NCBI GenBank assembly: GCA_008632985.1 | Contig: QPGO01000005.1 | Coordinates: forward strand, 62,001 to 126,000 | Origin: Psammoneis japonica | Taxonomy: Eukaryota | Length of the DNA stretch: 64,000 nucleotides | Direction of reading: 5' to 3' | Part shown: positions 467-64,000 of the stretch, in pieces | Layout: the number at the start of each line of letters is the position of its first letter | Position numbering within the stretch: the stretch's first letter is position 1 | Program-made: the position numbers and the translations under genes | The notes under the pieces: model-generated | The model's input: only the letters and a program-made list of their open reading frames with translations | Databases searched by the model: none | What the model was told of the DNA's origin: nothing

Positions 467-2123
467 GATGCCGCATGTAACAATATTCATATTTGCATGT
501 TTTTACAACAACATCGGACCTCCACGATTCAAATCAGAGATCCAAGATTCGAACCCCGTGTGCGATGCTCAGTCTCGAATCCCGCGGAAGCCGAGTCACG
601 AATGCGATATTTGTTCCTAGCTTCGCGCTTGTTTAACTTCGCGTTTCCTTTAGATGGCAGCTGCATCTGCTCATAAAAACTGCTCATAATCTTTCTAACG
701 CACTGATTATCACCTCTCAACTTTTGGTACAATAAAGTCACTGATTGATTGTTGCATCGCAATTACAGCTTTTAATCACTGAAAGTGCAGACGAATCTTA
801 AAATTCTGGCTACTTTCCCACACCGCACTGTTACTTGCGCTCTTTTCTGCTGTCATCTCGGCGAACGAAAAATGCCAAAAAAGGGTCTGTGTGCCCATCC
901 GTTCAGAACCGAGACTTATTGTGTTTGAGACCCTGTCCATGATGGACGCTCTTGTGATGTAATGTCAAATCATGTTATGAGCTTTCTAGACACTGCTTCC
1001 CTGGTGCTCTTGGCATCTTGCATCAGGTTCACCTCACTCACCCACACGTCAAGAGCCTGTGGTTGTGGGTGAAAATGCCAACTCTTTGGAGTCGTCTCCG
1101 CCGTTGACACACTGGTCTCTCGTCCTCTGTTGCAAGCGGTGAGCAGAGATCAAGCAACTGCGCCCAACACATGGAGGCAAGCCATCCTTGCTGGCTTGGT
1201 GAGTGCCTCTCAACTACAGACCAAGAAACTCTTGGTTCTTCTCCTCTCAGCAAAATCTTTGTTGTGGGACCCGGGAATGTGGAGAGTCCTCCACCAGCTG
1301 CCACAGCAACAACACAATGTTTGCAGAGCACTCTCAGACATGAGAAAATGAGCCTCATCAGCCTTGACCTTGAGCTGAGAGCATGACTCTTTTTTTTGTT
1401 CACACACACAACAGTGCTGCTGTGGCAAATGTCTTTGTGCAAAACTCTGTGCCACATGCTGCATTGTTGAATGCTGCCAAACAATTCTGTCACACTGTCA
1501 CAATGAAGTGCTGTGGTGGTGCAATGTTTCTGACACACCACCTTGTGAGAAGCACACAAGGCTGCCACAACACAACAGCCACAGCCACAAAAGAAAGAAC
1601 AGGCTTCTTCCTGGCAATGAGCTGACTGTCAGGAAAAGAGCTTTTTAAGGAATCAGAAGCAAAGCATGCCTTGAGCATGATTTGTGCTGCACCCAATGAT
1701 CTGTGCTCTTTGCTGCAGCTGGCCTGTGCTGTTGTGCAATGTTGGCAACTTGTGCACAACATGCAAGCCTTGGCACAATTGGGCCAAACGTGCACTGCAT
1801 CATGGTCTCATCATGGCTGATGACAACATCAGGAGGTTCATGAAAGGGCATTTTCCTTGCACATGAGCTGTGCAAAAATCACGCAGAACAAGAAATGGCC
1901 CTTGGCAAATGGAGCAGAGCAATTTTTGTCACAACACAAAGCACTTTTTCTCCACTTTTTGAAAGTGCATCTTTTTTTCAAAAACAAAAAAAGAGTCAAC
2001 AAAGCTCATGTTCTCATCCTCTGAAGATTCACATGGGTTGTGTCTGGGGCCAGAGAGAGAAGCTGCATCAAGGCTTGGTTGGCACAACCAAGTGCCAATT
2101 GCTGAATTGACTGTGCAGGTCAA

Positions 2124-2435
2124 TGTTGCCCAAAGGAAATCCTCTGATTTTTCCCATGCTGCTGTTTTTTGCACTTGTCCTGGTTGCTGTGGCAGCTGCA
2201 GTTTGCCTGGAAGTTCTCAACAAAGTTTGATCTTGTGATGCAACAGGTGCCCCCACTGATGCCACAACGCAATTCAAACAAACCAGATGATTGACTCCAA
2301 AGAGTGAGACAAAAGAAGGATGGTGAGATTGGTGAGGAATGAGTTCTCATTTCCAAAGTGTCACAAGATCCACCACATCAGTGGCTGAAGTGTCGTCTTT
2401 TCAACAACTCTGCACCTGGGTTGGATGCTCCAACA
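2124..2435 (-). repeat. 3' LTR of outer copia element
   Basis: Aligns to 12436-12768 (shared cacttgtcctggttgctgtggcagctgcag, catttccaaagtgtcacaagatccacca). Begins TGTTGGAGCATC on minus, right after a purine-rich AAGGAGTG (PPT-like). Left boundary approximate. Confidence 0.7.
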
Positions 2436-3799
2436 CACTCCTTGTGCTTGCAACAACATTCTGCCATTCATGTGACCTGCCCTTGTTGGCCATGTTGCAG
2501 TCTTGTGGTTCACCAGTCTGCTTGGAACTCTTGGTGTCACTGCCACTCACTTCAGGACTCTTGATGTCCTGCAACTGACAAACACACAAATGTGTGTGCT
2601 TGTTTCCATTGCTGCAATCAATCAAATCATCAAATGAACATGCAAATCCACAGACACTTCCACAAAGTGTGCTCCACATGAGCAGGATGAGATTTCTCTT
2701 TCTCACTCTCATCTTTCAAACATCCAATCTGATCCATGACCCAACTGTTGATTGTCTCTGGAGTCAAATCCAGGGATGCCATGTTGGCACAGTGCCACTT
2801 TTCTCACAGTTTGGTGGTTGCCAGGTCTGATGGCAGAAAAATGCTGCCAAGTTCCTGGCATCAAACACAATCCCTTTGGCATCCATCATGAGCCTGCATT
2901 GCTCTCATGCACTGGTGGGATCCAAATCCTGCAGTTTCATGAGGGGACCACAAATCCCACTCATGCTTGTGCCAAAGGCAGGAAAGCCAACACTTGACTT
3001 GCAGCACAAGAGGTCAATGTCAGTCTTGTTGAGGCCAAGAAAGGTTGGTCCTTTGCACAAATGAACAGCTTGTTTTGTCTCCAGGAATTGGCTCCCAGGA
3101 CTTGCCAAAATTCTTTGGTCTTGCGTGCTTTGATGGCATGCACGCTTCAGTGTTTGGGATGCAACCCCTTTGTTGCCAAGGATGAAGAACATCAGTGCAG
3201 CAGCAGTGAGATGCTCAAGCATTTCACAGCTTGTCTTCACCTCTGTCAAGGGGCTCTGCAGCTCCCTCATTTTGTGGCACCTTTGCAACCACAGGGCTCT
3301 CCTCCATGGGCCCTTGTTTGTCCAGCCCCCATGTTGGGAGCACTGGCTTGGATCCTTGATCCTCATTCTCTTCTGCAATCCTTTGACTTTGCATGGACAA
3401 ATGGCATTGCAACAAATGCAAAGACTGGGGGGGGAATGTCAATCCCCATGCTCTCATGCAATCCTTGAGTGCATTTCTCATCACACAATGTCAATCTCTC
3501 ATGTTCTTGCAGCTTTTCAAGGTCACAAAACCTCTGCCAACAGTCCCGCAGCTGCTGTTGGGTGTGGATGTCATCACCAAAATCCAACTCAAACTTGCAG
3601 CTGTCAGTCATCTTGTGTGACCACTCTGAAGAAATCACAGTTGCCAATTGCCTCCATTGATGAGCTGCATCCACAGATTGTGATTGCTGTTGAACCTTTG
3701 GCATGGTGCTCTTCCAGGTGCCAGGGATCTTTCACCCACATGCATCAGAATTCTCATCTGACATCACAAAGAACAGGACTTGTGTCTGTCACACTTGAA

Positions 3800-5440
3800 G
3801 TTGACAGCCCATGACAGCTCACAAAAACTTTTAAGACTTCTTGCCTTGTGATGGCTTTGTCATGAAGTGTCCCAATGCATCATTGGCAGGACAATGATGC
3901 ACTCACAAGTTGCCCTTCTTGATCTGATTAGCAACAAACAAACAGCCAATGTTGAGCACTTGTGACTGCTTGCCAGCACTCTTGCACCCATCAGTCTCAA
4001 GCAGGACAGTGCTCTTGTTGTCCTGGCACAGGACATTCTTGTCAATTGGACATGCCTCTGGTGCTCCATGAACAACTTTGTCTGCAGCATCACAGTCATG
4101 GCATCATTGACTCCAACAAGTTCAGCTTCTGTGTTGCTTTGGGTGTTGAGCTTCTTGTGCTTGTTTGAGATGGCCTGCACTGCTCCGCCACCCATTGTCA
4201 CAACTCCTCTGGCTGGTGTGACTCTTTGAATTGGGGTGTGCTGCAAATGATGCATCCACACACCACTTGACAACTCGGAGGTCCTTTGTGCTTGTTTGCA
4301 GCAACTTCATTTCTTGTCTCTGGTTCATGTGCATGAGACAACAGACCAGCCAGCTTTCCCGATCTTTGTTGGCAGGAGCTCTTGCATGCATGACATGGTG
4401 ACAGCAGAATGTGTGTCCACTTGGCCTCTCTCTTGTGCACAAACAGTCCCTTGGCCACCCATGTGTGGAAGGTCTGAGCCTTCTCATCTGACAATCTTGT
4501 TCCATCAGTGTCAAATGTCTTCTCTCCCCTGGCTGGTGTCACAGTGAAATCCACACTCTTTGACTTTTCTGGAAATTGGTCAATCATCTTGTAAATGCAG
4601 CCTGCCATCTTGACTTTCACTTTGCCCTTTTGGCTGAAGTCCAAAAACTTCACCATGGCTTCCATGCATCTTGTTTAGCCAGCTTGAAAATTTGTCATTT
4701 GCTTTTGGGTTCTTGTGGCTCAATGGCAGGTTGTCCACATGAAATCAAATTATGTGCTGCTTGCTGTTGACCACTCAATTGGCAATGCATGGATCACATG
4801 GGTTGAACTTAAACCCTGTCTTCTCCAAGTCATTGCAAAATTGATTGCACCACAATGGAGCCATGATTGGCATGCCGTAGATGGCTCTAATGACTTGGAT
4901 GCAAAGGACTGTCTTTTGCCTTTTTCTGGAACCACATGAGGTCTGTGCAGGTTGGGATCAATGCTCACTGGCATGTCCACTGGCACTCCTGCAATCTTCA
5001 TCATGAGCCAGTCTTCACCTTCTCCAGGCTCTAGCATCATTGTTGGCACAAATGCACCGGGAATGATGGCACTCATTTCATTGTGTTTTTCATGGGCATC
5101 AACAACTGTCATCATCATTGTCCCCTCAAGGGATGTGGCAGGGCTGACTGACTCATCTTTGTCTGGCCACTCTCTGGTTGGTTCCCCACTGCCTGTTGCA
5201 GGCCATTTGCCCTTTTGTGTGACCGTTTTGTTCTCAGCTGGGAACATCAAGGCTGTCATGGCCTTGGTTCTCTCAGTTGGAGTCTTGTCCTTGATTGATG
5301 CTGGTGCAAAGCACACTTGGTTGTGCAACTGTTTGATTTCTTTCTCTGAGGTGTCATGCCCCTTTTGGCCAAATGCTTTGAGAGGCCTCTGTGGAGCAAA
5401 TGTTGTCAGGCAAAACTTGTGCCCTCTCCACTTTTGAGTT
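3800..5440 (-). pseudogene. Copia RT/RNase H remnant (outer element)
   Basis: Frameshifted fragments 4750..5328, 4198..4665, 4122..4514 and 3860..4273 carry RT/RNase H motifs (SPATSLE, DAHEKH, KWCVDASFA, KLNTQSNTEAELVG, MTKPSQG). Confidence 0.85.
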
Positions 5441-6155
5441 GGTCATTGATCTCACACATGAAGTGCACAAGTGCCATTGCCATTTCCACTTCACATTCTA
5501 AATCATCCTTTGGATTGGGACTCATGATGGCATGTAAATGATGGCAGTGCTCAAGCTTGTGTTGCTCCTTTGCTGTCCTTCTGGCATTTGCCACTCCTGT
5601 GAAATAAACTTTCTTGTCTTCATTTCTCTGTGATGTCATCAATGTTGAAGGATGCTCCACTTCTTGTTGTGACTCTTCCTGGCACAGCATTTGCTTCTTC
5701 TTCCATTCAATTGCCTCCCCATCTTGGGTCTTCCTGGGGTTCTCTGTCTTGTTGGGGTTTTTCACTTTCACAGTGACTGTTGTCTTCTGGGTCTTCTTCG
5801 ACCTTGTGCTCCTCTTGAACTTTGTGCTGTTGATCAGGACTGGACCTTTTGTTGGCTGGCATCTCATTGGCCTCTCCTTTGCACTCATCATCTGAGTCAG
5901 GTTTGTTTTTGTGGTGTTTGTCTTCTGACTTGGCTGCACAGTGTGCATTGTTGTTTTTGTTTTCTGTGCTTTCATCATTGCTGTCTCTGTTGCTTTTGGC
6001 TTCATTGTTGTCCAGGCACTCCTGCAGTCCAGTCAGCATCACGCAGATTGTCTCTGCACTTTCCTGCAAACTTGAATTCCTTGATGACTTGTTGTTTGGC
6101 CATTTGCTTGACAGCCACAATGTGCATGTCAGCCAAGGGTGCAGAGGTGCACTTG

Positions 6156-6391
6156 AGTCAAGATGCAGTCCCACAGCTGGGTGGGATGGATGAGACCTTG
6201 GAGGTTGGTGGCAATGTGAGTGGCAACAGAGCAAACAGATGCTTGTTTCAAAGTCATTGTCTAAAAATTATGACGAAAGTCGTTGGTTCTGTTTTGAATC
6301 GATTTGTGTGATGAGTTGATTGTTTCGAAGAAATGAGCTGAGTCTGGGTTGCAGTCGTGAGATGCGACCAGAATGACGTTGAGTTGTGACT
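6156..6391 (-). repeat. 3' LTR of nested element (AGTC...GACT termini)
   Basis: Colinear ungapped match to 9218-9453. Confidence 0.92.
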
Positions 6392-6412
6392 CTCCCTCTC
6401 AACCGAGAGAGC

Positions 6413-8870
6413 TCACCAGCCCATGAGAGCCTTTCCAGCCGTGCGGAACGCATTGGTCTGCAGTCCCTTCGTGAACTGATTGGCTGGTTGCTCTGGAGTG
6501 CTGACAGATTGGATGTCGATCTCCAATTGTTCGACTTTAGTCCTAAACCAGTGGCACGGGATGCCGATGTGTTTGGCTTGCGGAGACAACTTGGGCATGC
6601 ATGCGAGCTTGAGGCATGCGGAGTTATCTTCACACACAACAGATGCAGGCAGGACATTCTGCTCAACAGGCGAGTCATCGGTGCCTTGGTTTGCAAGCTC
6701 AAAAGCCTTGGAGTGAGTCGTGACAGGGTTTTGGTGGTCAGACTTTCCAAATGCGTGGTGGTTGAGCTCCTTGAGAACTTCACGAATGGGGATGAGATCG
6801 CGCACAGCTTGAGAAAGTGCGACACATTCTGCTTCCACAGTCAACAATGCTGCAAGAGTCTGCAGCTTGGACACCCAGACAAGCGGGCAGCCAGCGCAGC
6901 AGATGAGGTGTCCAGTCCTGGACTTGACAGAAACTGGGTCTTGACCATCTTCCACACCAAACAACCCCGCGAAGTCAGAATCGACGCAACAATCAACTCG
7001 ATGATCTTGTGCAGGCTTGAGAATGAGACCTGCAGCAGCAGCAGCTTTGAGGTGTCGGAGCATCCGCTTCACTGCAGCAGTGTGGGATGCTTGGGGTGCA
7101 AACGAAAATCGAGCCACTTGATGTGCAGCACATGCAATGTCTGGCCGGCTGTTTGCTGCCAAGTGCACCAACATTCCAACAACTGAGTGACAATCGCAGG
7201 GTTCATCAAAAGGCAGGCCGTCCATGTCGGCACCAACAGCCGCAGGTGGAGCTGGAGCAGATGCTCCATTGCAATCCTGCATCTGTGCGGTGTGCAGGAC
7301 CTTGTCAATTAGACCGGGTTGAGTGAGTAGAAATCGACCCTCGAAGAGCTTTTCGATCTTGACACCGAGAAAGTTGCCGACTTCTCCTTCGTCTCTGAGT
7401 TCAAACACATGTTGATGTTCATCGTCCGAGACTCCCAACTTGCGAATTTCTTCTTCAAGAGCTTCAGCTGAAGCTCCAGCAAACACTGTGTTGTCAACGT
7501 GCACCACACACATCACACCCTCTTTGAAATACAAACAGGGGTCCACAGTTGAAGGCATCCATCCGCGCTCGATTAAACCAGCTCGTGACTTCTCGTGGAA
7601 GCCCTTGGGAGAGTGTTTTAGGCCACACAGTCCTTTCAAAAGTTTGAGGACCATGTTGAGTCCCGACCTTGGCGCAAAACCCTTCAGCGGTGTTTTGTGA
7701 ACTTCCTCGGCTACATCAGCTTGGCAGAAGGCTGTGGCATGGTCCACCTGACGTGCAGTCCATCCTTCCTTCAATGCCGCAGTGAGCATGAGTCGGATGC
7801 TGGACCATTGCATGACTGGTGCACAGGTTTCAAAACAATCCACTCCTTCTTTCTGCAAATCACCGCGGATGCAGCATTGGGCCTCACACTTGAGAGGGGT
7901 TCCATCTGGGAGTCTCTTGAGCTTTTGGGTGCCCATGTGCCTGGAAGTGCATTCATCTGCAGCTGATGCTTGACTGCTTTCCAGGCTCGACGATGCACGA
8001 GTGCATTGACCTCAATTTTCATTGCCTTGATCCATTCGTCGGCGTCCGGACCTTTCAGAGCATTGTGCAATGAAGGCACATCAGGGTCCTTGGTCTTCTC
8101 ACTAGCTGCGCGGGCTTGTGGATCATTGACATTGATGGCGCCACTGTCCAAATCTGTCTCAAGAGTTGCCAGACAAGCCAGTCGAGCCTCGTGTCTGATC
8201 GGTGTTGGCATTTCCTCGACGGTGCTGAAGCAGACTTCATCTGTGAACTTGGTGGAGTTGAGCTGTCCCTTGGTTGACCTTGAAGACCATCACAGCCCTG
8301 ATGCTCCCTCTGGATTCGTCATGGGAGGTGTCTCAGCTGGGGGAGGAGCTGTTGGTTCCGTTGGCGCTTTGGGTGGTGGAAGTTCGTTGCTGTCTTGAGG
8401 TTCAGGTGGCTGAATTGGCACAGATTCTGCAGAGTCTGTGGGAGTTTGAGTCGCAGGTGGGGCTGGTGGTGCTGGCTGAAGAGTCGCAGGTGTGACTTGA
8501 TTGGGAACGTTGTCGCAAGAAATGGATGAATCTGGCACAGCAATTGATGGAGTGGGCTCAAAATGGCCGTGAATGCGTGTCGCTCTGGCTGGTTCTTGCT
8601 CTTTACGTTGATGCTCTGGAGGGGCAAGCCACTCATCGTGCAGGTGGACCAATTGATCCTTCTCCAGAGGGATGCACATTGATTGGTTGAGATGCAAGTG
8701 CTCCCAGTGATCAGGTGGATCCGTCTCCCTCTCGATTGATGGCACGGCAGTGAAGAGATCGTCAAAGACCACATGACACTGAGGAGTGACGCTTCTCTCA
8801 GTGCACTGAACCAAACAGGAAAACCAGAGGCACCGTGGGAGCTGGTGTGTGTGCATGTAGAGCAGATTTG
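6413..8870 (-). pseudogene. Copia pol: post-integrase linker, RT and RNase H; hypermutated
   Basis: ORFs 6413..7936, 7771..8211 and 8290..8931 contain VTPQCHVVFDD, WIKAMKIEVNAL, GVDCFETCAPV, KGLCGLKHSP, DPCLY, HVDN, RPDIAC, VDSDFAG, EAECVAL, CEDN, QPANQFTKGL. Confidence 0.92.
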
Positions 8871-9217
8871 CACGCTTTTCTCCCACTGGTGGTGCCAGTG
8901 TCATTTGGTTGTTTAAACCCTGTCTCAGCACACGTCATTGCATCCTGACTCTCCCACTCATCGCAGGCACCTGGCATGGGCAGTGCCGCATGGCGGACAT
9001 CATGTGTGTGCAACGATTTGTCATTGGGAGACAATCAAGATGGCTGCAATGTTTAACTAGAGGAATTCTTGGTTGAACTCAACTTGCCTCATTTGCATGT
9101 TGAAGTTGGTTGCATTGGGCACATGTGCGCCACAGGAGGCGACTTTTTGGAAGTGCCCACACATGTGGATAGGTGGGTCGAACCCGAGGCCACGCGGGAA
9201 CGTGAAGGGTCACAACC

Positions 9218-9453
9218 AGTCGAGATGCAGTCCTGCAGCTGGGTGGGATGGACAAGACCTCGGAGGTTGGCAGCAATGTGAATTGCAACAGAGCAAACAG
9301 ACGCTTGTTTCAAAGTCGTTGTCTAAAAATTATGACGAAAGTCATTGGTTCTGTTTTGAATCAATTTGTGTGATGAGCCAACTGTTTCGAAGAAAAGAGC
9401 TGAGTCTGGGTTGCAGTCATGAGATGCGACCAGAATGACGTTGAGTTGTGACC
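9218..9453 (-). repeat. 5' LTR of nested element
   Basis: Colinear match to 6156-6391; followed on minus by a PBS-like sequence. Confidence 0.92.
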
Positions 9454-12330: not shown

Positions 12331-12435
12331 TGCATGTTTCCTGTCTCGGATGGTCAAATGGAGGAGGCTGGTGCCGCGCACACCAAACACAGTGCTTGTG
12401 ACTATTTGGGAGTGAGCGTTAAAGCAACAAGTCAA

Positions 12436-12768
12436 TGTCACCAAAAGAGAATCCTCCAAGGTTTCCTGTGCCACTCATCACACTTGTCCTGGTTGCTGTG
12501 GCAGCTGCAGCTTGCCTGGAAGTTTTCAACAAACTTCAATCTCATGACACAGCGGGCACACGTTGTGTGTGACACCTCAGCGCAACTCCAACAAACCAGA
12601 TGATTCACTCCAAAGAGTGGGACAAAAGAAGGTTGGTGAGATTGGTGATGAGTGTGTTTTCATTTCCAAAGTGTCACAAGATCCACCATCTCAGCAGCTG
12701 AAACACCCCTTTTTCAACAACTCTGCACCCAGGCTCCTCACATTTCCCACTCGTTTGATGCTCCAACA
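12436..12768 (-). repeat. 5' LTR of outer copia element
   Basis: Direct repeat of 2124-2435, ending gatgctccaaca on plus; lies upstream of gag on minus. Confidence 0.7.
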
Positions 12769-14945: not shown

Positions 14946-15029
14946 GAACATCAACAGCAAGCAGTTACCTCCGTTCTTGCTAACTCATCTTACGATGTGC
15001 AATCTTTGCTGCCTTCATTGCTATCTCCG

Positions 15030-16095: not shown

Positions 16096-16099
16096 TTAA

Positions 16100-52632: not shown

Positions 52633-53514
52633 ATGGCTGCTAAGATCGGCGTGGCACCGCTTTGTCTCTTTCTTTTCCTTTTAGAACCCTTCTCCCTAGC
52701 CTTTGTAATCCCTTCAAAGAGGCACAAATGCTCTTCTGGCACAAGGACGTTTGGCTTGCGTGAGTGGAGAGAAACAGTGCAAGACTTGAGTCAGAAGCCA
52801 ATCCTCCTGCTTCCATTTGCGGCCGACGAAGCACTCATTCAAGGTCAATCGATAAACATTCGCTTGACTGAAGGTCGCTTCTATGACCTGTTTCAAGATT
52901 GCATTGATGATTACGAGTCGATTGTTGGCATGGTGCTCATGGGGGATGACGGGTTGTTGGATGCCATGCCGCTGTGTGAAATTTGTGATTTCGATGTGGA
53001 AGCTGGGTTTCGTGGAAAAGTAACTGTCAGTGTTACTCTCAAAGCTGTTGGGAGAGCAAAGGTTTCAATCACTCAGATGAAGCCAGTCATGATGGGCATG
53101 TGTATAGAACTGGAAGACAACGGAGTAATCGACGTTAAGGCTGCGAACGACCTTGCTGATGATGTTGAACTGGTTATATCAGATATGAGCAGGATAGACA
53201 GCGACGGTGTCAGCATGAAAGAGCGATATGACTCAGCTTTTCAGTTAGCTCTAAATACAGATTCTCGGGCGAATCGAGCAATAAAAGACGAAGGATTGTC
53301 GGTTGACAAAGGCGAAAGGTCCAAAGACGAATTGACAGCAGCAAGCTGGGCGGTATTCTGCAGTGTCTCTGATAAGGCGTCTCTTTACAATGCCATTGCG
53401 ACAACGAGCCTTACGGAACGTCTCGAGCTGGGTTTAAAAGCTCTTCTTGGCGAAAAGTATCGATCAAGCGCAACACCGAAGGGAAGTGACGGCGACATTG
53501 TTGGCTTTGAATGA
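52633..53514 (+). CDS. Plastid-targeted LON N-terminal (substrate-binding) domain-like protein
   Basis: Signal plus SLAF|VIP motif; LLPF..DEALIQGQ..IRLTEGRFYDLF, LKAVGRAKV. Confidence 0.75.
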   Translation: MAAKIGVAPLCLFLFLLEPFSLAFVIPSKRHKCSSGTRTFGLREWRETVQDLSQKPILLLPFAADEALIQGQSINIRLTEGRFYDLFQDCIDDYESIVGMVLMGDDGLLDAMPLCEICDFDVEAGFRGKVTVSVTLKAVGRAKVSITQMKPVMMGMCIELEDNGVIDVKAANDLADDVELVISDMSRIDSDGVSMKERYDSAFQLALNTDSRANRAIKDEGLSVDKGERSKDELTAASWAVFCSVSDKASLYNAIATTSLTERLELGLKALLGEKYRSSATPKGSDGDIVGFE

Positions 53515-55741: not shown

Positions 55742-58714
55742 TCATAAACTCCAGTGTTCCACTAGTTGTTGAATGGCAGAAATTGAAGCATCATTACCAA
55801 TGATTTTGATGCGCCTTTCAAACACGTAAAGCCTAGCATTGTCAACAGGAAACTTTTCGCCATTTTGGCGTGTTGGGTGGTAGCCTGGGAAGGCGTTGTG
55901 ATCGAAAGGACACCAGCCAATGAGTTGCCAACCAGTTCGCCATGCACACCTTGTCACGTTCCAACGTGAGAACTGATCTCCTTGAAGTGACAAGCCAAGC
56001 TTGATTGTTGCTACCGACCTCTTTTCATCCACCGAGTTGGTAAGAAGAGCAATCAAACTTTGGAATGTCTTGAAAATCAATTGCTCGTGCTCGTTTGGGT
56101 CTTCTTCTTTTCCCGTGTATGGGAAATTCCACGAAAAGCACCTCAGAGGGTAATTTCGGGCGATACCGATAACCTGCTGGTTCAGTTGAAGCCTAGTCGC
56201 GTCAACCCCAATCAACGCATCGCTAATTTTGGGACCAGGGGATGGCAAAATTGTCGAGGTGACTAGTGGTGGAAAGCCAAACGAATGCAACGCTCTTGTA
56301 AACTGAAAGTTGCCCTCCCCAAGAAGCATCATTGTAGCAGCCTTGTCACAAAACCAATCAACGGCGGTCTGAGGATATGTCAGTGACTCGAGAACAGGTA
56401 CCAATGCTTCCATAGGGCTTGTCGAGTCATCCTCACCGAACGATTCCGTGTCCGCGTCTCCATGAGCGAAGATGCATTCGCTGCCCTTGGTACATTTTCC
56501 CGATTCGTAAAAGCGACATGGCGGACGAGGTGCGTATATTGAATGTGACTGTCTACAACTTTCACCGTACTTGCAGTTACCTTTAAGGAAATGGATGCAC
56601 GCCATTTTACCCCCTGTAGATGCCTTGAATCTCTGATGTACCGGATTATGAATACCTCTAAGGCTTCTGGCCAATGGCAAAGCCTTCGCAGCAGAACTAG
56701 TCGTGGCAAGCATCGACAGAGCATCGCAAAGAATAGCGCCTTTCGAATATCCATAGACACGCGTGATCATGTCTCGTTCGTCTAGCTCAAAAGCTGACTT
56801 CATCCAAATCTCCGGTGCCTTCTTCCAAGCTGGAGTCGGATCAGAACAGCGCAACCAGCTCGGTTCGTACTTTGCAAGAAAAAGAGTGTTTATGGTATTC
56901 GTGACGATTTCATGAACCGATCGCATGCTGGTAGGATTCAAATCATTAGCCCTGCACCATAACATGTGCTCGCTATCAACCTCTTCTGTCCACTCTCTAA
57001 CATCTTGCTGTGTTTTCAGCTCGGTAGATTTATGCCAATTGTGGTCCCAGTACATGTACGCAGAGAGGTTTGCCAATGCGACAGATGGCACCGAACTGGC
57101 CTGCACATCAGGATAGAAGCTTTCAAGAATGTCCTGATTCTTGTCGGTATTGCTAAAATGATGAATGACTGGCGCTGGCTTGTGGTGGTAAATCGCCATT
57201 AACGCCAAGGTCTCGTGCAGCAGACCCAACCTTCCTCCCTCCAGAACGGTTCTAGCGTCTGTGACACTTAACGGCAATGCTGCCACCAAGCTTCCGTATT
57301 CCGTAGGAACAACCCGTTCCTCGTACATTGTTCCCGCTTGATGACACGTGCCAATTTCAACGAGATAGTCTATCGCGTCCTCGACAGCTTCATCATCCGG
57401 AGGATCGAGGCACCGCTGTAAGACTTTACGCGGGTCGCCCACTCTTAACTTATCATCTGCGCACACCATAGCAAGCACTTCATTGTGACATGAGCTCATT
57501 TGCAACTGTGGCACATCCCACTGCTCCAGATTATTGATGTAGAAGCCCCGAGTGACGAGGCGAAAGACACGTCCGGGACAGGTGCGCCCCGTGCGGCCTT
57601 TACGTTGCTCTGCAATCGATTTTGAACACCAAACAGTACGGGCAATGTAGCTTCGCGTGTCAACATCCCAGCTCACTGCCAAAGCCCGGCATAGGTCAAT
57701 GACACAAGACACGCCCGGGACAGTCACCGACGAGTCGGCAATAGCAGAAGCGAGCAACACCCGGCGCCTTCCCCTATGGTTGTGAGACGACATGTTTCGA
57801 ATGCAGTCTTCAATATCCACAGCAGAATGCAACACGCTGAGCTCAAGACTTTCGCCATTGACGTAAGAAAGGGTCATGTAGAGTTGCTCCAAGTGTCGAT
57901 AAGTCGGTGCAAAGATAAGAAAGGGCGATGCCTTCGGTTCTTCCTCGTCGAGGTTTGATACCAACGATCGAATCAACGACACCATTCCATCAGAGATGGT
58001 CTTGCCCCTGTCTGACTTTAGATCTGCATATGAGTCATGATACATTTGGCGGATGAATCCTTTGTGTTGATAAAGACGAGCATCGTCTTTCAAATCATCC
58101 AAGTACAATGTTTCAACTTGATTGTGCCAAGCCACAAAGCTCTGCATAGTCTCGAGATTGATAGTGTCGATCATGGAGCATCCAGGAACATTGTGAAAAT
58201 ACTCCGCATAGCGACGGTGATTAAATGTAGCGCTCATGAGCACCAAGCGAATATGTTCCCTCGGATGCGTCTGCATGAATTGTTTCACCAACGCCAACAC
58301 CAAGTCACTTTCTGGAGATCGCTCGTGACACTCGTCAACAATGACACACTCGAATTTACTCAAGGCTTCTACTCCATTGTTGCGCAATTCTTCTAACAGA
58401 ATCCCAGCGGTCGTAAACAATAGTTTGGTGTTGTGATTCGACAAGTTGTGATTTCCAACGTGGTATCCAACAGAGCTGCCGCCTAGAGCTACACCACGTT
58501 CCTCCGCCACACGCTTGGCAATAGCAACCACCGCTAGTCTTCGCGGCTGGGAACACAAGATTCGTCCCTGAAGACCGTCGAGCAAAAGAGGAGGAATCAG
58601 TGTGCTTTTTCCACATCCTGTGGGGCCAATAATGATGGTAAGCCTGTTCAAGGTGACTTTCTCGATGATCCTGGATCGGATTCTCTCCGAGATCATGGGC
58701 TTTTCGGAAGACAT
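55742..58714 (-). CDS. DExH-box RNA helicase with two CCCH zinc fingers and a C-terminal DUF2431/BMT5-like Rossmann domain
   Basis: GPTGCGKST, QPRRLA, DECHERS, MSAT, QRKGRTGR; CIHFLKGNCKYGESCRQSH and CRFYESGKCTKGSECIFAH; LLGEGNFQF...DATRL...WNFPYTG. Confidence 0.9.
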   Translation of the reverse strand: MSSEKPMISERIRSRIIEKVTLNRLTIIIGPTGCGKSTLIPPLLLDGLQGRILCSQPRRLAVVAIAKRVAEERGVALGGSSVGYHVGNHNLSNHNTKLLFTTAGILLEELRNNGVEALSKFECVIVDECHERSPESDLVLALVKQFMQTHPREHIRLVLMSATFNHRRYAEYFHNVPGCSMIDTINLETMQSFVAWHNQVETLYLDDLKDDARLYQHKGFIRQMYHDSYADLKSDRGKTISDGMVSLIRSLVSNLDEEEPKASPFLIFAPTYRHLEQLYMTLSYVNGESLELSVLHSAVDIEDCIRNMSSHNHRGRRRVLLASAIADSSVTVPGVSCVIDLCRALAVSWDVDTRSYIARTVWCSKSIAEQRKGRTGRTCPGRVFRLVTRGFYINNLEQWDVPQLQMSSCHNEVLAMVCADDKLRVGDPRKVLQRCLDPPDDEAVEDAIDYLVEIGTCHQAGTMYEERVVPTEYGSLVAALPLSVTDARTVLEGGRLGLLHETLALMAIYHHKPAPVIHHFSNTDKNQDILESFYPDVQASSVPSVALANLSAYMYWDHNWHKSTELKTQQDVREWTEEVDSEHMLWCRANDLNPTSMRSVHEIVTNTINTLFLAKYEPSWLRCSDPTPAWKKAPEIWMKSAFELDERDMITRVYGYSKGAILCDALSMLATTSSAAKALPLARSLRGIHNPVHQRFKASTGGKMACIHFLKGNCKYGESCRQSHSIYAPRPPCRFYESGKCTKGSECIFAHGDADTESFGEDDSTSPMEALVPVLESLTYPQTAVDWFCDKAATMMLLGEGNFQFTRALHSFGFPPLVTSTILPSPGPKISDALIGVDATRLQLNQQVIGIARNYPLRCFSWNFPYTGKEEDPNEHEQLIFKTFQSLIALLTNSVDEKRSVATIKLGLSLQGDQFSRWNVTRCAWRTGWQLIGWCPFDHNAFPGYHPTRQNGEKFPVDNARLYVFERRIKIIGNDASISAIQQLVEHWSL

Positions 58715-58949
58715 GAAAGATTTTTTATGGCTTGCAATATGGGATTTTCTATTCACACTACTGTCGGTAGGATGGGTTAAGAGTCGAGCATTCGCCGTCT
58801 ATTCAAATCCGTCAAGTGCGTTCAATGGAGTTCATTCGGTCCCTGTCCCGTGTGACCGTGTGTTTTGGATGTTCTTTGCTGTTGGGAGTTGGGCCGGTTG
58901 CGCTGTTGGCTGTTGGCTGTTGGCTCTATGTTGACTCTATTGTGATGGC

Positions 58950-61900
58950 TGACAGCCGTTTTGTTGCGCGTTGCGCATGCCACCGGTGACCTTGCTTCCC
59001 ATTGCCGGCATGTGAGCGATCCTGCAGTGACATCATGGCAAACCTGAGCTTTTCTCTGAACAGAAGGTCTTTGCAAGACCATGTGCAGCAAATGCAATGA
59101 AAAGCCCGCACACTGCTTTTGGAGGTCTTCCATGTGCAGCCAAAGTTCTGACAGACAACAGTTCAAAATGGGTCAGAAAAAAGCATGAGGGGCAGGGGCT
59201 TGAGGGGGCTGGGTGTGAGCCTGAGACTCCCAACAGCTTCAGAAGTTTGAGATTTAACAGCACCTTGCTTCTTGTGCTGGTCCTGCCAGTCAAGCACACC
59301 GCTCCAACATTTCCATCACCAGCCAAGCTTTTGGGTGGTCTTTTCTTTTGTGCCTTTTGTTTTCTCATTTTGCCTGCTGCTGACGCTGCTGCTTGTGCAC
59401 TGTCACACTGTGTTGCACAGACAGCCATCTTTTAAACAGGGAAATTTTCAACCCACCTGCGCCAGAGCTTGTGCAGCTTCTGTGTGGGTTGTGAGGTGAG
59501 TTGAAAAAAAGACTCTCAAAAAGAGCCAAGGGATGAGTTAAAAAAACTCTCCAGCCAAGCAACGCTGTGACAAAAAACAGAACACTGTTTTTCAAAGTGC
59601 ATTTGGTGCCCCCCCCCCCCCTTTGCACAGAAATCTAAAAGGCAGCCACCACCAAAGCCAGTGAGAAATCCACAGAGCCAAGAACTTGGGAGAAACAAAG
59701 GTCATTGAGTGTCCTTGTTGCGGGCTGGCGGCGCCGGGACAATCTAACGGACATCCAGGACAGATGATGATCGTGCACCAGATGAGAAAGAAAGTGAGCA
59801 AAGGAGAGATCATCGGATCTCTCCATGCTGTCTGTGCCAGTCTGTCCAACACAAGGGAGTGTGCTCCCCATCTTGGATGTCTGTCACCCTCCCCTGATGA
59901 GCAGCAATGCAATTCTCAACAAGAAAGAAAGAGAGAATCTGAGTGAAAAGAGAGGACCAGACTGGCAGAACAAAGAAGAGCACCAAAAGAAATGGCCAAG
60001 ACTTGGTCCGCAAACACGACAACAATCAATGACAACACCCCATCAAGCGACGAGCATGTCAGGAACAAAACATCCATCCCGCGATCAATGCATCGGTCTT
60101 CGACAAAAAATGTCAAAGGCAGTTCCCAACAAATCTTTTGGATGAATTGAGTCGTGCACCAAAGAATGATTTCATCAATCCACAAACAATCAAGCACAAA
60201 GAGACATTCTGGCAAGTCATCCTGTCGCCAAAAATCATCGGAAGAGATGGGGCCAAAAATTGGAAATCCACCATGGCGAGTGATGCGTTGAAAATGAAGC
60301 AATGGCATCCCACCTGGCAAACCAACACTTCTGCCACACTTTGTGTCGCCCTTGAAAAACACATTGGAGAAACAAAATGAATCACAAAGTCGCTCAATGT
60401 TGGAAGAACAGTGACGTGTCGTAGGTGAGCATCGCACGGCGTTCAAAACGTGGTCATCAAGCAAGGTGTCTTGGGTGGAAAGCAGAGTTCTCAACAGCCT
60501 GACATGTTTCCTCTGCATTGTGGGAATCCCTCCCCTGATCAACAAACCTTGCGGACTGGCGGCATCGGGACAATCTAGCTGATGTCTAGGACAGATGACA
60601 ATCGTGTGCCAGATGAGAAAGAAAGTGAGCAAAGGAGAGATCATCGGATCTCTCCATGCTGTCCATGCCAGTCTGTCCAACACAAGGGAGTGCACTCCCC
60701 ATCTCGGATGTCTGTCACCCTCCCCTGATGAGCAATGTGCAATGCTTGGCAAGAAAGAGAGAGATGATCCAAACAAAAAGAGAGGACCAGAACAGCAAAG
60801 AAAACAAAGAAGAGTGCCAAAAGAAATGGCCAAGACTTGGTCCGTAAATGTGACAACAATCAACAATGACATCCCATCAAGGGACAAGCATGTCGGGAAC
60901 AAAACATCCATCCCACGCTCAATGCATTGGCCTTCGACAAAAAATGTCAAAGGCAGTTCCCAACAAATCTTTTGGACAAATTGAGTCATGCACCAAAGAA
61001 CAATTTTGTCAATCCACAAATGAGCAACAGCAAAGAGACATTCTGGCGAGTCACACTGTCGCCAAAACTCATCGGAAGAGATGGGGCCAAAAAATGGAAA
61101 TCCACCATGGCAAAGGATGCGGTGAAAATGAAGCAACAGCAATCCACCTGACAAGCCAATGCTTCTGTCACCGAATTTGTCGCCCCTGAAAAACACATTG
61201 GACAAAACAAGTGAATCACAAAGTTGCTCAACGTTGGAAGAACAATGACGTGTTGCAGGTGAGCACCGCACGGCGTTCAAATCATGGTCGTCAAGTGCGG
61301 TTTCTTGGTTGAAGGTTGAATTCTCAACAGCCTGACTTGCTTCCTCTGCACTGCAGAAATCCCTCCCCTGATCAAAAAGCACAGGGTCATCATCAGGGAT
61401 GGTTGACAGGTCGGGAGCACCAGGAAAAATGCTGTTTGACACCACAACGGTCTTGACAGCGAAGGAAAGAGGCGACACACTGGAATGGTTGGTGTGATGA
61501 TCAATCGTGCACACTTCCTCTGCACGACATTGCTCCCTCCCTTGATCAGAAAATGAAGGATCATCATCAGCGATGGTGGACAGGTCCAGAGCACCATGAA
61601 AAGCACAAATGGACACAACAACAGTCCTGACAACGGAGGAAAGAGACGTGATGGCAGAAGGCAGCAAGACTCTGTGGTCCTCTTTCATGACCACCCTGCT
61701 TCTGTTGGCCTTGCTTGGACAATGGAAAGAATGGCGGCATCGCATGTCTGAAATTAACGACGGCCCGAACCAAAAATCTGAGTGCAAATCAACTTGACAA
61801 CCAACGGAGCACTGGCAGCATCCGCAAGCATCAGATGACGGTGGGATGTGGGTGGCAAGCAGCTTGGGTGCAACCTTGGTAAGAGAGAGCAGTCCATCCT

Positions 61901-64000
61901 TGAGGTGAACATGGCCATTTTTGCATGGAACAACAGAATGGCCCGAAACAAAAAACTTTGGGGTCTCGAGTGGGCAGGATTGGACTTCAGCAGGAAGCAC
62001 CACCGATTCGGCAGGGAGTTCAAGGGATCCAGCATCAACAACTGCAGATGGCTCACCAACAGATTCCACAACAGACATGGTGGACTTGACAGTCAAGGAA
62101 TTGGCATCCGCAGGATCCATCCGAGCATCCACAGTGAGTGCACCTGCAACATGAGACACAACAGCAGCATCAGTGTTGCATGCAGCAGACCCAGCAACTG
62201 GGCCCAGCTTGGAGGCCTTAAATCCATGAGAGTGCGAAGGATGGGTCACAGATGCAGCAGGAAGCACAACAGCTTTCCCGCATCCGTGAGTGTCACCGGA
62301 AGGGGAAGCATCCTGTTGGCCACAAGCTGGCACATCCTTGAGAAGTCCTTTAGGATGGGCAGTGTACAGAACACTGGTCGGAGGCAGAGTCATGTTTGAA
62401 TCTTCAGCAGGAGGGTGAACACTCTTCAACGCATTGGTCACAGCTTGCTCAAACTGTTTTGGACCACCAGGTGAATGAGTGGCTGAGGCCTTGGCAAGGT
62501 CTTCAGGAGCAGCACCTGCAGTGGCAGCCGGCCGAGGTGAAGAACTTGGAGCAGAAGAGGAATCCGGGAAAGGAGCATCAGACACATCATCCCAACAATC
62601 ACAAGATTGAAAACCAGGACGAAAATGGAGATGAACAGTCCCTGCATGTGTCGTCATGGTGTCATGACCTTCCGAGATCGCTTTGATCACAGCCTTCTGA
62701 AGAGTGCTGAGGTTCAGACAAACCAGAGAACCTTGAGGAGCAGCCACAAAGAGAGGAGCCTTGTCAAAGATCGGTCTGATTTGTGCAAGATCTGCAGTCA
62801 GTGCAGCTTGAGGGATGATGAGGTTCTGAACGATCTCATGACGGAGAACAGCAACAGCATCGTTCTTTGGGCCTTGAGGGGCAAATCCATCCAAAAGATC
62901 TTCAAGAGCAGGGTTCTTGTCTGAATGAAGGGTGTTCAGGAAAATGTGTGCATCGGGTGGGCAATCATGCGGTTTGAATTCAACCAGCATCGTCTTGATC
63001 TTGGTCAAATCAACGGCATTTGGGTTTTTGTTCACCATGGTTGCGAGGGAAAAAATCAAATTCCTGTGCAGAGCTCTGGCATGTGTTCTGCGGTGGTCAT
63101 GATGATCACAAATCAAGAGAGAAAAACAGCTGTGACAAAGATGACAATTTCAACAGAGAAACATCACCAAATCACACAAAGAACGTTGCGATGGATGAGC
63201 ACAGAGGAAGAGGAACAGTGTGCTGCTCCTCACAACCTTGCGGGCTAGTGGCATCGGGACAATCTGACGGACATCTAGGACAGATGACAATCGTGTGCCA
63301 GATGAGAAAGAAAGTGAGCAAAGGAGAGATCATCGGATCTCTCCATGCTGTCTGTGCCACTCTGTCTGACACAAGGGAGTGCACTCCCCATCTCGGATGT
63401 CTGTCACCTTGTTTTTTCCCTCTGAGACTGCAGGGCTCTGCCAGGCAGGGACGACTCAGAAGTGATGAAAGCTGAAGATGAAGGAAACAGGAGATGTGTT
63501 TTCAACCCAGGTGGGTCACTCGGGGACAATGCACAAGGTTTTCTGTGCATTTCTGCGTGACACGCACTTTTTGCACCACAATCGTGTGCAATTTTCAAGC
63601 TCCCACGCGATGCTGTCTTTTTTTCATGCCTCATCCACAAATCGCGCACACCAAAAATGGCACCATGCCGCTGCCATGAACTCGACCATCCTTGCACCAT
63701 CATCCGTGATGACAAAGAAGGCAAGAATGCCAAAAGAGGTCAACAAGACTGAGGTCAATGTGATGATGTGGTTGAAGTTTTGATTTTTGCCGTTTGTCAT
63801 GTCTTGTGGACAGCCTTTTTCCTCATGACATTTTTTATGCCAATTTTTCTCATCCTCAGATTGCAATGCGGCATTCTTCAACATGCAAGGCTCCACTGAC
63901 TTGATGCTTCACACACACAACAATGCACATCTTTGTGGCACGTCAGTGTGATTTTTGTGATGCATGTGTGGGAGGAACTCAAACAGAGCCACAAGCCAAG
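58950..64000. repeat. TpA-depleted repeat block 6
   Basis: TA nearly absent; CpG partly retained in 59.7-63.4 kb. Confidence 0.85.
59718..61375. repeat. ~830-bp tandem duplication; third partial copy at 63236-63408
   Basis: ccagatgagaaagaaagtgagcaaaggagagatcatcggatctctccatgctgtc occurs at ~59778, ~60609 and ~63298; copies A and B stay colinear for about 800 bp. Confidence 0.9.

Follow-up and report, generated by a model that had tools for sequence, protein, structure and literature searches.

A window of 64,000 bp from a contig of the pennate diatom Psammoneis japonica (QPGO01000005.1, positions 62,001–126,000; 'the window' in what follows) alternates between ordinary gene islands and blocks from which the dinucleotide TpA has almost disappeared. 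The question it raises is what process could remove TpA so completely from some stretches of DNA while the genes beside them stay normal. The original prediction, made from the letters alone, correctly took the source for a probable diatom, and proposed that repeats there suffer a context-specific, strand-symmetric conversion of A to G in TA in addition to loss of CpG. As a whole this interpretation is supported, since none of the three observations that it had named as speaking against it was made: transposon relatives are not equally TpA-poor, A-to-G change does prefer TpA, and reads do not restore TA to the blocks. Our favoured reading, with a probability of about 0.6, is in-place, domain-restricted hypermutation of TpA to TpG or CpA, likely by a TadA/ADAT2-type DNA adenine deaminase acting as a defence, together with methyl-CpG decay. 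All results on the signature describe this one 64,000-bp window, not the whole genome.

Block composition

Segmentation of the window by TA density assigns 34,346 of the 64,000 bp to six TpA-depleted blocks, listed here with the gene features used below (o/e, observed/expected ratio).

1111–12900, block 1: 40 TA and 172 CG in 11,790 bp; o/e TA 0.05, TG 1.70, CA 1.90
15173–20446, block 2: 21 TA and 81 CG; o/e TA 0.06, CG 0.25
33096–35345, block 3: contains a repeat of very high copy number, its 41-bp tandem units at ~34334–35000
40091–41174, block 4: 1.1 kb, with an expressed gene on either side; 3 TA and 13 CG
43545–52420, block 5: 30 TA and 44 CG in 8,876 bp; o/e CG 0.09
58929–64000, block 6: 18 TA and 132 CG; o/e TA 0.06, CG 0.44
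20447–33095, largest gene island: normal dinucleotide content
31173–32279, minus strand, propionyl-CoA carboxylase beta gene, inside that island
35889–36995, 2OG-Fe(II) oxygenase gene, the only such gene in the window: matches a prolyl-hydroxylase-type Pfam family, not TET_JBP

TpA o/e is 0.04–0.06 in the blocks against 0.45–0.60 in the intervening gene islands, and CpG o/e is 0.09–0.44 against ~1, with TpG and CpA raised to ~1.8 in the blocks. Pooled values for blocks and gene islands are 0.05 and 0.55 for TA, 0.23 and 0.98 for CG, 1.78 and 1.20 for TG, and 1.79 and 1.20 for CA. The 34,346 bp of blocks hold 117 TA and 479 CG, where ~1,264 and ~1,963 are expected at gene-island density (1,091 TA and 1,695 CG in 29,654 bp), and mass balance between the surplus of TG plus CA (2,527) and the deficit of TA plus CG (2,631) is 96%. 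GC content is equal (0.489 in blocks, 0.482 in gene islands), and AA, TT, AC and GT are the same in both; in the blocks the dinucleotide AT falls a little and GC rises a little, the expected by-products of TAT>TGT and TAC>TGC. The island at 20447–33095 served as internal control. UV-type damage was considered and rejected, TC, CC and TT being unchanged in the blocks.

The loss of TpA and CpG and the richness in TG and CA that had been claimed for six blocks are thus confirmed. Their standing as visible repeats of one another is not: self-BLAST of the window gave only 11 internal pairs, and the blocks are not visibly copies of each other. The TA-rich string cited near 27775 was located at 27776–27790, and the start coordinate given as 950 was right, the TA change-point falling at 988.

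The signature is confined to these six sharp-edged, non-genic blocks, and adjoining genes have normal dinucleotides. At 11 of 11 block edges the TA and CG change-points lie −184 to +217 bp apart. An idea formed by eye, that a margin of TpA loss reaches past the CpG loss, was not upheld by the change-point test (7 edges against 4). Block 5 is the most fully converted of the six; block 6 has kept half of its CpG and extends beyond the end of the window; block 1 is composite, with old parts (TA ~0, CG ~0.05) and a younger Copia remnant nested within. Open reading frames (ORFs) of 90 codons or more are also abundant in the blocks: 34 kb of block sequence holds 154, and 30 kb of genes holds 90.

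Transposon content of the blocks

Recognisable mobile-element and repeat features include the following.

6156–9452, minus strand, truncated Copia-type retrotransposon remnant: 20 TA and 124 CG in 3,297 bp; o/e TA 0.10, CG 0.57
6156–6390 and 9218–9452, direct repeats bounding the remnant: 235 bp, 91.5% identical
6413–8011, minus strand, reverse transcriptase (RT)/RNase H open frame of 532 codons: Pfam RVT_2
4529–4933, second, weak Copia-polyprotein-like fragment: 3 tblastn HSPs, E 8e-6 to 2e-5
2116–2416, plus strand, left copy of a 78%-identical direct repeat: 11 CA/TG double differences from its partner
12428–12729, plus strand, right copy of that repeat
59916–63149, minus strand, nearly Tyr-free open frame of 1,077 codons: free of internal stops, which number 28 and 58 in the other two frames
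59718–60545 and 60549–61378, internal tandem duplications of the 1,077-codon frame

The remnant at 6156–9452 has the features that define Ty1/Copia elements, namely an RVT_2 domain (at 6413–8011, E 5e-24, 85.6 bits, cut-off 31.6), similarity to Copia polyproteins (121 tblastn HSPs across 6416–8856) and flanking direct repeats, which are probably LTRs; integrase and gag were not recognised in it. The weaker fragment at 4529–4933 lies where depletion in block 1 is complete, and the pair 2116–2416 and 12428–12729 may be LTRs of an older element enclosing the Copia remnant. The 1,077-codon frame of block 6 matched no Pfam family and found 13 weak relatives among 1.84 billion representatives, its N-terminal part alone being matched; it probably descends from the coding region of an element not yet characterised.

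Of the 154 block ORFs that reach 90 codons, 150 were searched against Pfam, with no match above the curated cut-offs (the other four were scanned separately). A local tblastn search of the blocks used 164 ORFs from 80 related loci, and so was able to detect Copia-like pieces only. The description of the process as repeat-targeted goes beyond what the blocks show. What can be identified in them is two Copia-derived pieces, the high-copy repeat, a pair of flanking repeats and the tandem duplications; mobile origin is shown for the two Copia pieces and suggested for the repeat-bearing parts, and most block sequence is without recognisable origin. Scans of the window for tRNA and Rfam families returned no matches, and a tRNA-like T-arm string in the high-copy repeat gave no further lead. 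One sequencing run, X2, has spliced joints and is RNA-like; it gives no cover over most of the blocks, which is not evidence of silence.

Direction of change

The RT of the Copia remnant can be compared with its relatives column by column. None of its 13 conserved Tyr is kept (6 are now Cys, 6 His and 1 Val), and the catalytic YVDD reads HVDN, whereas other residue classes are kept at 47–100%, Lys in 16 of 18 columns and Glu in 16 of 17. The 60 single-step changes in 312 conserved columns comprise 18 TA>TG, 11 TA>CA, 8 CG>CA, 3 CG>TG, 3 other A>G, 1 other T>C and 16 transversions, a polarised spectrum that rests on one element and in which a TA- or CG-type ancestor was preferred where several one-step ancestors fit. 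TpA-type changes (29) thus outnumber CpG-type changes (11) and dominate over all other transitions (4); the context-specific A-to-G change at TA that had been proposed is borne out, and an A-to-G change indifferent to TpA is not what the columns show. The 11 CpG-type changes and 16 transversions are as expected for an old relic.

Relatives of the element are normal. Tyr content is 2.3–4.6% in 120 of 120 homologs against 0.2% in the RT frame, and TA o/e is 0.38–0.90 in 80 of 80 related loci, none lower than 0.38. Six of the 80, Copia relatives from metagenomes, have CpG o/e of 0.15–0.29 yet TA of 0.48–0.80. In the RT region TA density is 49.3/kb in 78 relatives and 5.6/kb in the window, where CpG density (40.1/kb) is not lower than that of the relatives (34.7/kb). 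Judged against these relatives, which are not TpA-poor as the opposing case would have it, the TpA poverty is evidently a product of mutation and not the native composition of the family.

Repeat copies and read-derived contigs

Copies of the same sequence within the window have resolved shared ancestral sites differently, which puts the change after duplication or insertion. Eight internal repeat pairs hold 55 double differences of CA against TG, every other double type occurring at most 6 times, and 26 single differences of CG against TG or CA. The repeats flanking the Copia remnant hold 4 CA/TG doubles against ~2 expected from CpG alone, which is insufficient to date the TpA loss after insertion.

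The TA-free blocks recur in contigs built from exact 31-mers of a public run at ~59x depth; these contigs reach 315 kb, and a single one of 7,600 bases spans block 4. The run comes from the same sample and is possibly the assembly's own data, its platform not being on record. In each listed piece the window and the contigs differ by at most 10 other letters. Among the differences listed, 13 of 15 within blocks set TA or CG against TG or CA (6 TA-type, 7 CG-type), and the 9 within genes are of mixed types; the listing leaves out 22 further differences. Likewise all nine variants listed between copies of the high-copy repeat set TA or CG against TG or CA, 6 of them being TA-type. These comparisons indicate that the change occurred in place and recently. 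In all six listed TA-type differences the run has TA and the window TG or CA, an asymmetry without explanation.

Strand symmetry and sequence context

The process is strand-symmetric, as had been predicted. Its products are nearly balanced in the blocks (3,904 TG, 3,765 CA), as are the 6 Cys and 6 His among the lost Tyr, and a runs test for strand tracts gave z of −0.75 to +0.49 in the six blocks, in none of which strand-coordinated tracts were found.

Context matters. Relative to gene islands, survival of TA is 0.70 in TTAA, 0.32 in CTAA/TTAG, 0.24 in CTAG, 0.02 in GTAC and 0.007 in ATAC/GTAT, and none of 65 ATAT survives. NTGC is the most enriched product and NTGA is not enriched, and all four classes that discriminate favour the A that precedes a pyrimidine, giving a conversion order of TAC>TAT>TAG>>TAA. 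From the resistance of TTAA and the preference for TA followed by a pyrimidine, we infer the target motif 5′-TAY, with C best; the estimate is a crude mass balance in which gene islands stand in for the ancestral sequence and CpG decay is assumed to split equally into TpG and CpA.

Proposed mechanism and alternatives

The six blocks would be silent, largely transposon-derived DNA, in which a process acting on DNA and confined to these domains rewrites TpA in place to TpG or CpA, either strand being equally likely. It favours 5′-TAY, C best, and largely spares TTAA; the signature itself, with its direction, symmetry, context and confinement to the blocks, and its origin in place, are established by the window's sequence. 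Ordinary methyl-CpG decay (CpG>TpG/CpA) would affect the same domains, the TpA process being far faster than background mutation, running ahead of CpG decay and near saturation. The outcome would be irreversible inactivation by missense, Tyr becoming Cys or His and ATA Ile becoming Met or Thr. CGA>TGA is the sole route to a stop codon, so almost none would be made, and long open frames would persist in dead elements for that reason. The favoured candidate agent, which we infer together with its targeting signal and its defence function, is a DNA adenine deaminase of the TadA/ADAT2 kind, or something equivalent, that silenced chromatin would recruit and that would produce inosine, read as G; its role would be a genome defence akin to the TpA hypermutation of integrated viruses in Bigelowiella natans.

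Since the signature is symmetric, A>G on one strand is indistinguishable by sequence from T>C on the other, and thymine might be attacked instead: TET/JBP-like oxidation at TpA would yield 5hmU or 5-formyluracil, which mispairs with G and gives T>C. All of the sequence evidence fits this equally, the context simply becoming 5′-R-T-A; enrichment of 5hmU at TpA is known from dinoflagellates, and 5-formyluracil promotes T>C mutation. We consider it unlikely, however, as the order TAC>TAT>TAG>>TAA resembles the preference of TadA and early base editors and the window's one 2OG-Fe(II) oxygenase is of prolyl-hydroxylase type, and we know of no TpA modification of the 5hmU/5fU kind, or enzyme for it, in diatoms. 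The original prediction also offered Pol-eta-like error-prone resynthesis (WA>WG) when T:G mismatches at methylated CpG are repaired, with which the agreement of TpA-free and CpG-poor domains within ~200 bp at all 11 edges is in keeping. The motif of Pol-eta mutagenesis is WA, so that AA is targeted as well as TA. The lack of AA depletion (o/e 1.23 in blocks, 1.17 in genes), with Lys and Glu kept, argues against it, as do the near-complete TpA loss in the RT region where CpG is not reduced and the TpA retained by CpG-poor Copia relatives elsewhere; with TpA loss ahead of CpG loss, this part of the prediction is disfavoured and looks very improbable. Editing before integration, either ADAR-like A>I on element RNA or deamination of cDNA, later fixed by retrotransposition, would suit a sole identified element that is a retrotransposon and the 5′ U preference typical of A>I RNA editors. 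Equal treatment of both strands without strand runs argues against it, there being no sense-strand bias (Tyr>Cys 6 against Tyr>His 6, TA>TG 18 against TA>CA 11). Differences between window and run at the same locus are also of the TA/CG against TG/CA type, blocks without a retroelement signature are converted equally, and TAG, the triplet that ADAR favours, is converted poorly, so that we give this route scarcely any credence.

Joint suppression of UpA and CpG with an excess of UpG and CpA is known from many RNA viruses, and the elements might by nature or selection avoid both dinucleotides, escaping host sensors or RNA decay. Such a native composition is hardly tenable where catalytic and conserved residues are destroyed (HVDN; no Tyr kept of 13), where relatives of the Copia element are normal, and where duplicates have resolved shared ancestral sites differently (the 55 CA/TG doubles). 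A sequencing or assembly artefact on modified DNA gains something from the unrecorded platform of both the assembly and the run, and from their common sample. It too is disfavoured to the point of being a slim chance: noisy long reads would not yield the 31-mer contigs that reproduce the TA-free blocks, misreading of modified A as G should also create CG, which is depleted instead, and block edges are sharp beside normal genes. GC-biased gene conversion, or a general AT>GC bias of non-coding DNA, is rejected, given the equal GC content, the undepleted AA, TT and AT (the last only slightly lower) and a CpG>TpG change that runs the opposite way.

Comparison with known systems

In-place deamination at TpA, the reading preferred here, has one close parallel. 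According to the available part of a preprint on B. natans (Mettrop et al., bioRxiv 10.64898/2026.01.13.699255), integrated viral DNA of this alga undergoes TpA-specific hypermutation: in mutation-accumulation lines 230 of 231 mutations in two integrated viral regions were A>G or T>C and every one of these lay on TpA, low-TpA coding sequences were enriched for reverse transcriptase and DDE domains, and an ADAT2-like adenine deaminase was proposed there also. As in the window, TpA becomes TpG or CpA depending on the strand, beside normally mutating genes. In B. natans the process is confined to foreign or mobile DNA; in the window it is confined to six non-genic blocks, mobile origin being established for two Copia pieces. 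The differences are several. B. natans is a chlorarachniophyte (Rhizaria) and the organism here a stramenopile diatom, and its process was caught in action at mild depletion (Rho TpA 0.45 in an NCLDV region), whereas here the end state alone is seen, near saturation at 0.05. CpG loss coincides with TpA loss in the window, and the preference for 5′-TAY and the resistance of TTAA are features of the window; a term search of the preprint turned up neither CpG nor flanking context nor diatoms. The original prediction knew of no description in diatoms, and our literature search for TpA hypermutation in diatoms likewise found none; as a claim of novelty this holds for diatoms but not for the signature itself, which the available part of the 2026 preprint reports in a chlorarachniophyte.

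Repeat-induced point mutation (RIP) of ascomycete fungi is likewise an irreversible, domain-wise transition hypermutation of mobile DNA beside intact genes, and in both RIP and the window copies diverge so fast that families become unrecognisable. RIP consists of C>T changes, mainly CpA>TpA, and so creates TpA, lowers GC content and makes stop codons. In the window, unlike RIP, the direction is TA>TG/CA, TpA is destroyed (o/e 0.05), GC content is unchanged and stops are removed. Methyl-CpG decay would explain the CpG>TpG/CpA half of the signature, whose direction fits, including the 26 single differences between repeat copies and 7 against the run; it cannot remove TpA, and the six CpG-poor metagenomic Copia relatives keep normal TpA. 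TadA/ADAT2 enzymes, whose natural substrate is tRNA, convert A to I, require a 5′ T or U and prefer C after the A; in tRNA-Arg, TadA naturally acts at U-A-C-G, and YAC was the preferred site of early adenine base editors. The 5′ T and 3′ C of the window's context agree with this preference. We know of no natural TadA/ADAT2 enzyme for which a role in genome defence by DNA editing is established. Diatom DNMT4 enzymes are related to the RIP factor RID and are of unknown function in the part of the source available (PMC9998398).

Significance

Targeted adenine-side hypermutation of mobile DNA has one prior report, the 2026 chlorarachniophyte preprint. A saturated diatom example would mean that the process is not peculiar to one alga, that retrotransposons are hit besides viruses and that completion is possible. 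The window also constrains the enzyme: it prefers 5′-TAY, leaves TTAA largely alone, shows no strand runs, works in the domains where CpG decays and outpaces that decay. In practical terms, repeat finders cannot keep up with the divergence of transposon families in such genomes, gene counts are inflated by relics with few stops, and Tyr-free, Cys/His-rich 'proteins' are usable as a marker of the process. Should the agent be a chromatin-acting DNA adenine deaminase, it would be of interest to base-editing research.

More tentatively, and with the odds against it, diatoms, perhaps with SAR lineages more widely including Bigelowiella, may own a natural chromatin-guided 5′-TAY DNA adenine base editor that permanently disarms transposons and integrated viruses by erasing TpA, alongside cytosine methylation, and does so through missense rather than stops. 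If true, fungal RIP would have a second counterpart of independent mechanism, and genome defence by DNA adenine deamination would have its first natural example.

Composition of the window

At 1-kb resolution, two composition states alternate along the window. Segmentation on TA density placed the borders (TA, CG, TG and CA are written for the dinucleotides), giving six TA-depleted blocks totalling 34,346 bp and six gene islands totalling 29,654 bp.

TA-depleted blocks from TA-density segmentation
1111-12900, block 1
15173-20446, block 2
33096-35345, block 3
40091-41174, block 4
43545-52420, block 5
58929-64000, block 6

Pooled dinucleotide counts, with observed/expected ratios (o/e) in brackets
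Blocks: TA 117 (0.05), CG 479 (0.23), TG 3,904 (1.78), CA 3,765 (1.79)
Gene islands: TA 1,091 (0.55), CG 1,695 (0.98), TG 2,231 (1.20), CA 2,209 (1.20)

Base composition is equal in blocks and gene islands. Compared with length-scaled gene islands, the blocks lack ~1,147 TA and ~1,484 CG and have ~2,527 extra TG+CA, a mass balance of 96%. AA, TT, AC and GT do not differ, and the small AT deficit and small GC surplus of the blocks are by-products expected from TAT>TGT and TAC>TGC. The pooled ratios bear out the two-state loss of TA and CG with gain of TG and CA claimed in the original prediction, whose example of a TA-rich string lies at 27776-27790. The blocks show two grades, one in which TA and CG are both lost (1-6 kb, 10-12 kb and 44-52 kb) and one in which TA is nearly gone and about half of CG is kept (6-9 kb and 60-64 kb); the reverse state (CG <0.3 with TA >0.3) occurs in none of the window's 1-kb windows. 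A Pro/Ser/Ala-rich frame of 461 codons (14755-16140, +; GC 0.57) spans the edge of block 2, with intermediate TA (o/e 0.24) and CpG kept (0.69), and may represent a zone of partial conversion or another kind of sequence.

Organism and block content

The genes in the islands are of ordinary eukaryotic kinds. For one of these, encoding propionyl-CoA carboxylase beta (31173-32279, -), the best of 8,000 scored relatives has 89% identity and the best named relatives are diatoms (Fragilaria crotonensis at 87%, then Nitzschia, Cylindrotheca and Seminavis). Judged by these sequences, the organism, previously called a probable diatom, is a pennate diatom. Run X2, from the same sample, has GT..AG joints at 38439/38536 (within 37699-38669) and at 42026/42147 (120 bases skipped, within 41706-42867); it thus resembles RNA and delimits introns of methyltransferase-like genes. 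Directly adjoining block 6 is an unusual fusion, in which a helicase core (DEAD/DEAH), zinc fingers of CCCH type and, at the C terminus, a BMT5-like (rRNA uridine-N3) methyltransferase domain share one 1,018-codon frame (55742-58798, -).

Features within the blocks
4529-4933, second Copia-like fragment, weak match
6156-6390 and 9218-9452, 235-bp direct repeats flanking a Copia remnant (6156-9452, -)
6413-8011, -, RVT_2 reverse transcriptase (RT) of this truncated Copia retrotransposon, E 5e-24
34334-35000, repeat of very high copy number, built of 41-bp tandem units (units 34390-34478, related copies 34731-34845)
59916-63149, -, open frame of 1,077 codons

Polyprotein similarity of the Copia remnant extends to 8856. 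The blocks contain 154 ORFs with 90 codons or more; a Pfam scan found nothing above cut-off for 150 of them, and the RT was the sole match among the remaining four. The 1,077-codon frame has no internal stops, versus 28 and 58 in the other two frames (P ~1e-13), together with codon-like composition and internal tandem duplications; its 13 weak relatives are limited to the N-terminal 230 residues and belong to no Pfam family, and the frame probably encodes the protein of a diatom mobile element not yet described. The block 3 repeat reaches a summed k-mer depth of ~59,000 in run X1, a public run of the same sample, versus ~59 for flanking DNA, so that its copy number is roughly thousand-fold higher; a satellite or SINE-like family is possible. 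It contains a T-arm-like string, but ARAGORN and Rfam scans found nothing. Loss had also been predicted to be repeat-targeted: transposon origin is evident for part of the blocks and plausible for the remainder, but targeting of repeats as such is not established. The blocks are mutually dissimilar (just 11 internal pairs in a self-BLAST of the window).

Direction of change

The 532-residue RT of the window holds one Tyr (0.2%), 4.7% Cys and 4.1% His; its 120 best homologs have 2.3-4.6% Tyr (none <1.5%) and means of 1.7% Cys and 2.4% His. When it is aligned with 60 of these, none of the 13 columns with Tyr in at least 70% of homologs is kept: six are Cys (TAY>TGY), six His (TAY>CAY) and one Val, and the catalytic YVDD has become HVDN. 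Other conserved residue classes are 47-100% kept. At the codon level 78 of 312 conserved columns have changed, 18 by more than one step and 60 by one step; with preference given to a TA- or CG-type ancestor where several one-step ancestors are possible, these 60 comprise TA>TG 18, TA>CA 11, CG>CA 8, CG>TG 3, non-TA A>G 3 and non-TA T>C 1, plus 16 transversions. The predicted preference of A-to-G change for TA is thus found, with 29 TA-type changes versus 4 other A>G or T>C.

In the homologous RT region the averages over 78 relatives are 49.3 TA/kb and 34.7 CG/kb, compared with 5.6 and 40.1 in the window copy, which has lost ~89% of its TpA but, on balance, no CpG. None of the relatives checked shows such depletion, neither the 120 homologous proteins in Tyr nor 80 related Copia loci from metagenomes in TpA (TA o/e 0.38-0.90 in 80/80), the scan for these loci being somewhat biased against converted copies because one of its two search patterns contains Tyr and the other allows Tyr or His. 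Six loci (L034, L060, L052, L008, L047 and L041) are CpG-poor (o/e 0.15-0.29) with TA kept at 0.48-0.80, which is ordinary methylation decay in other hosts. On these sequence comparisons, TA is the ancestral state.

Changes in place on both strands

Eight internal repeat pairs show 55 double differences with CA opposite TG, every other double type occurring at most six times; such doubles arise when one ancestral YpR site is resolved independently in two copies. An 832-bp tandem pair has 21 of them, of which CpG alone could supply an estimated ~6 at most, so that ~30 ancestral TA, a normal density, would have been converted after duplication. The Copia repeat pair, with 4 CA/TG doubles and 7 singles of CG versus TG/CA, has too few alone to date the TpA loss. 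Equal Cys and His outcomes in the RT rule out sense-strand-only editing of RNA or cDNA, and together with the random order of TG/CA labels along the blocks (runs-test z -0.75 to +0.49) they uphold the strand symmetry originally claimed. The runs test finds no long single-strand tracts in the blocks, a pattern resembling that of many independent hits.

Contigs of run X1, which cover 33000-52999 at ~59x, were checked for TA at block sites and carry the same TA-free blocks; the platform of this run is unrecorded, and its reads may be those from which the assembly was made. Among 24 single-copy differences listed between window and run (22 further ones exist), 15 are in blocks and 9, of mixed types, in genes. 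Thirteen of the 15 are TA/CG versus TG/CA (6 TA-type, 7 CG-type), and all 6 TA-type differences listed have TA in the run and TG/CA in the window. Likewise, 9/9 variants listed among copies of the block 3 repeat are TA/CG versus TG/CA, 6 of them TA-type. Differences of this type suggest that the process acted recently or is ongoing.

Context and domain

The 117 surviving block TA are non-random by context.

TA survival, blocks relative to gene islands
TTAA, 0.70
CTAA/TTAG, 0.32
CTAG, 0.24
ATAA/TTAT, 0.09
CTAC/GTAG, 0.09
GTAA/TTAC, 0.07
ATAG/CTAT, 0.03
GTAC, 0.02
ATAC/GTAT, 0.007
ATAT, 0/65

By rough tetranucleotide mass balance NTGC products are most enriched and NTGA products show no enrichment; in 4/4 classes separating two context models, A with a 3' pyrimidine beats A with a purine two bases upstream. 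With gene islands standing in for the ancestor and CpG products assumed to split evenly, a crude motif would be 5'-T-A-Y (C > T > G >> A) for an adenine change or 5'-R-T-A for a thymine change. TA and CG change-points lie -184 to +217 bp apart at 11/11 edges, and both processes therefore share one domain. A systematically wider TA-free than CG-poor zone was not upheld (7 edges versus 4).

Mechanism

A TpA-specific transition process, strand-symmetric, context-dependent, domain-restricted and near saturation, has acted on this genomic DNA, faster than CpG decay and operating together with it. We infer an enzymatic agent, since the 100-fold spread among tetranucleotide contexts and the kb-sharp edges are hard to explain by spontaneous chemistry or selection. 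The best candidate would be a TadA/ADAT2-type DNA adenine deaminase recruited to silenced chromatin; the block context (5' T, 3' C) matches the tRNA site of TadA (U-A-C-G) and the YAC context of early adenine base editors. Oxidation of thymine at TpA would be just as symmetric as adenine deamination and would fit the sequence equally well; we regard it as less likely. The Pol-eta-like WA mutagenesis offered in the original prediction is disfavoured by the intact AA and by a TpA loss that does not track CpG loss. gBGC, UV damage, RNA or cDNA editing, native composition and artefact were all rejected.

TpA and CpG conversions yield in-frame stops solely via CGA>TGA and destroy TAA and TAG. With stops lost and not created, dead elements retain long open frames (532 and 1,077 codons) and are inactivated by missense changes. 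As TAA and TAG are absent from all six blocks, the number of stop-to-stop ORFs is inflated (with a minimum of 90 codons, 154 in 34 kb of blocks versus 90 in 30 kb of gene islands). In DNA of this kind, gene prediction will return too many 'proteins' that are rich in Cys/His and free of Tyr.

Relation to known systems

A full-text literature search found one description of such a signature, in the chlorarachniophyte Bigelowiella natans (10.64898/2026.01.13.699255), and none in diatoms; the original prediction likewise names no precedent in diatoms. According to the available preprint text, 231/302 nuclear mutations in B. natans mutation-accumulation lines fell in two integrated viral regions, 230/231 of these were A>G or T>C, all on TpA, RT and DDE domains were overrepresented among coding sequences poor in TpA, and an ADAT2 homologue was proposed there too (10.64898/2026.01.13.699255). 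Depletion in B. natans is mild (Rho 0.45), whereas the window blocks are near-saturated (TA o/e 0.05), and that text makes no mention of CpG, flanking context or diatoms (10.64898/2026.01.13.699255). Fungal RIP is a functional analogue of opposite chemical direction; diatoms carry RID-related DNMT4 genes, described as of unknown function in the source text available (PMC9998398).

The mutational signature of the window is real and striking. It is best classed as a new and saturated instance, carried by a retrotransposon in a diatom, of chlorarachniophyte-type TpA hypermutation, to which the window adds a sequence motif, a domain common with CpG decay and the finding that stops are not created.
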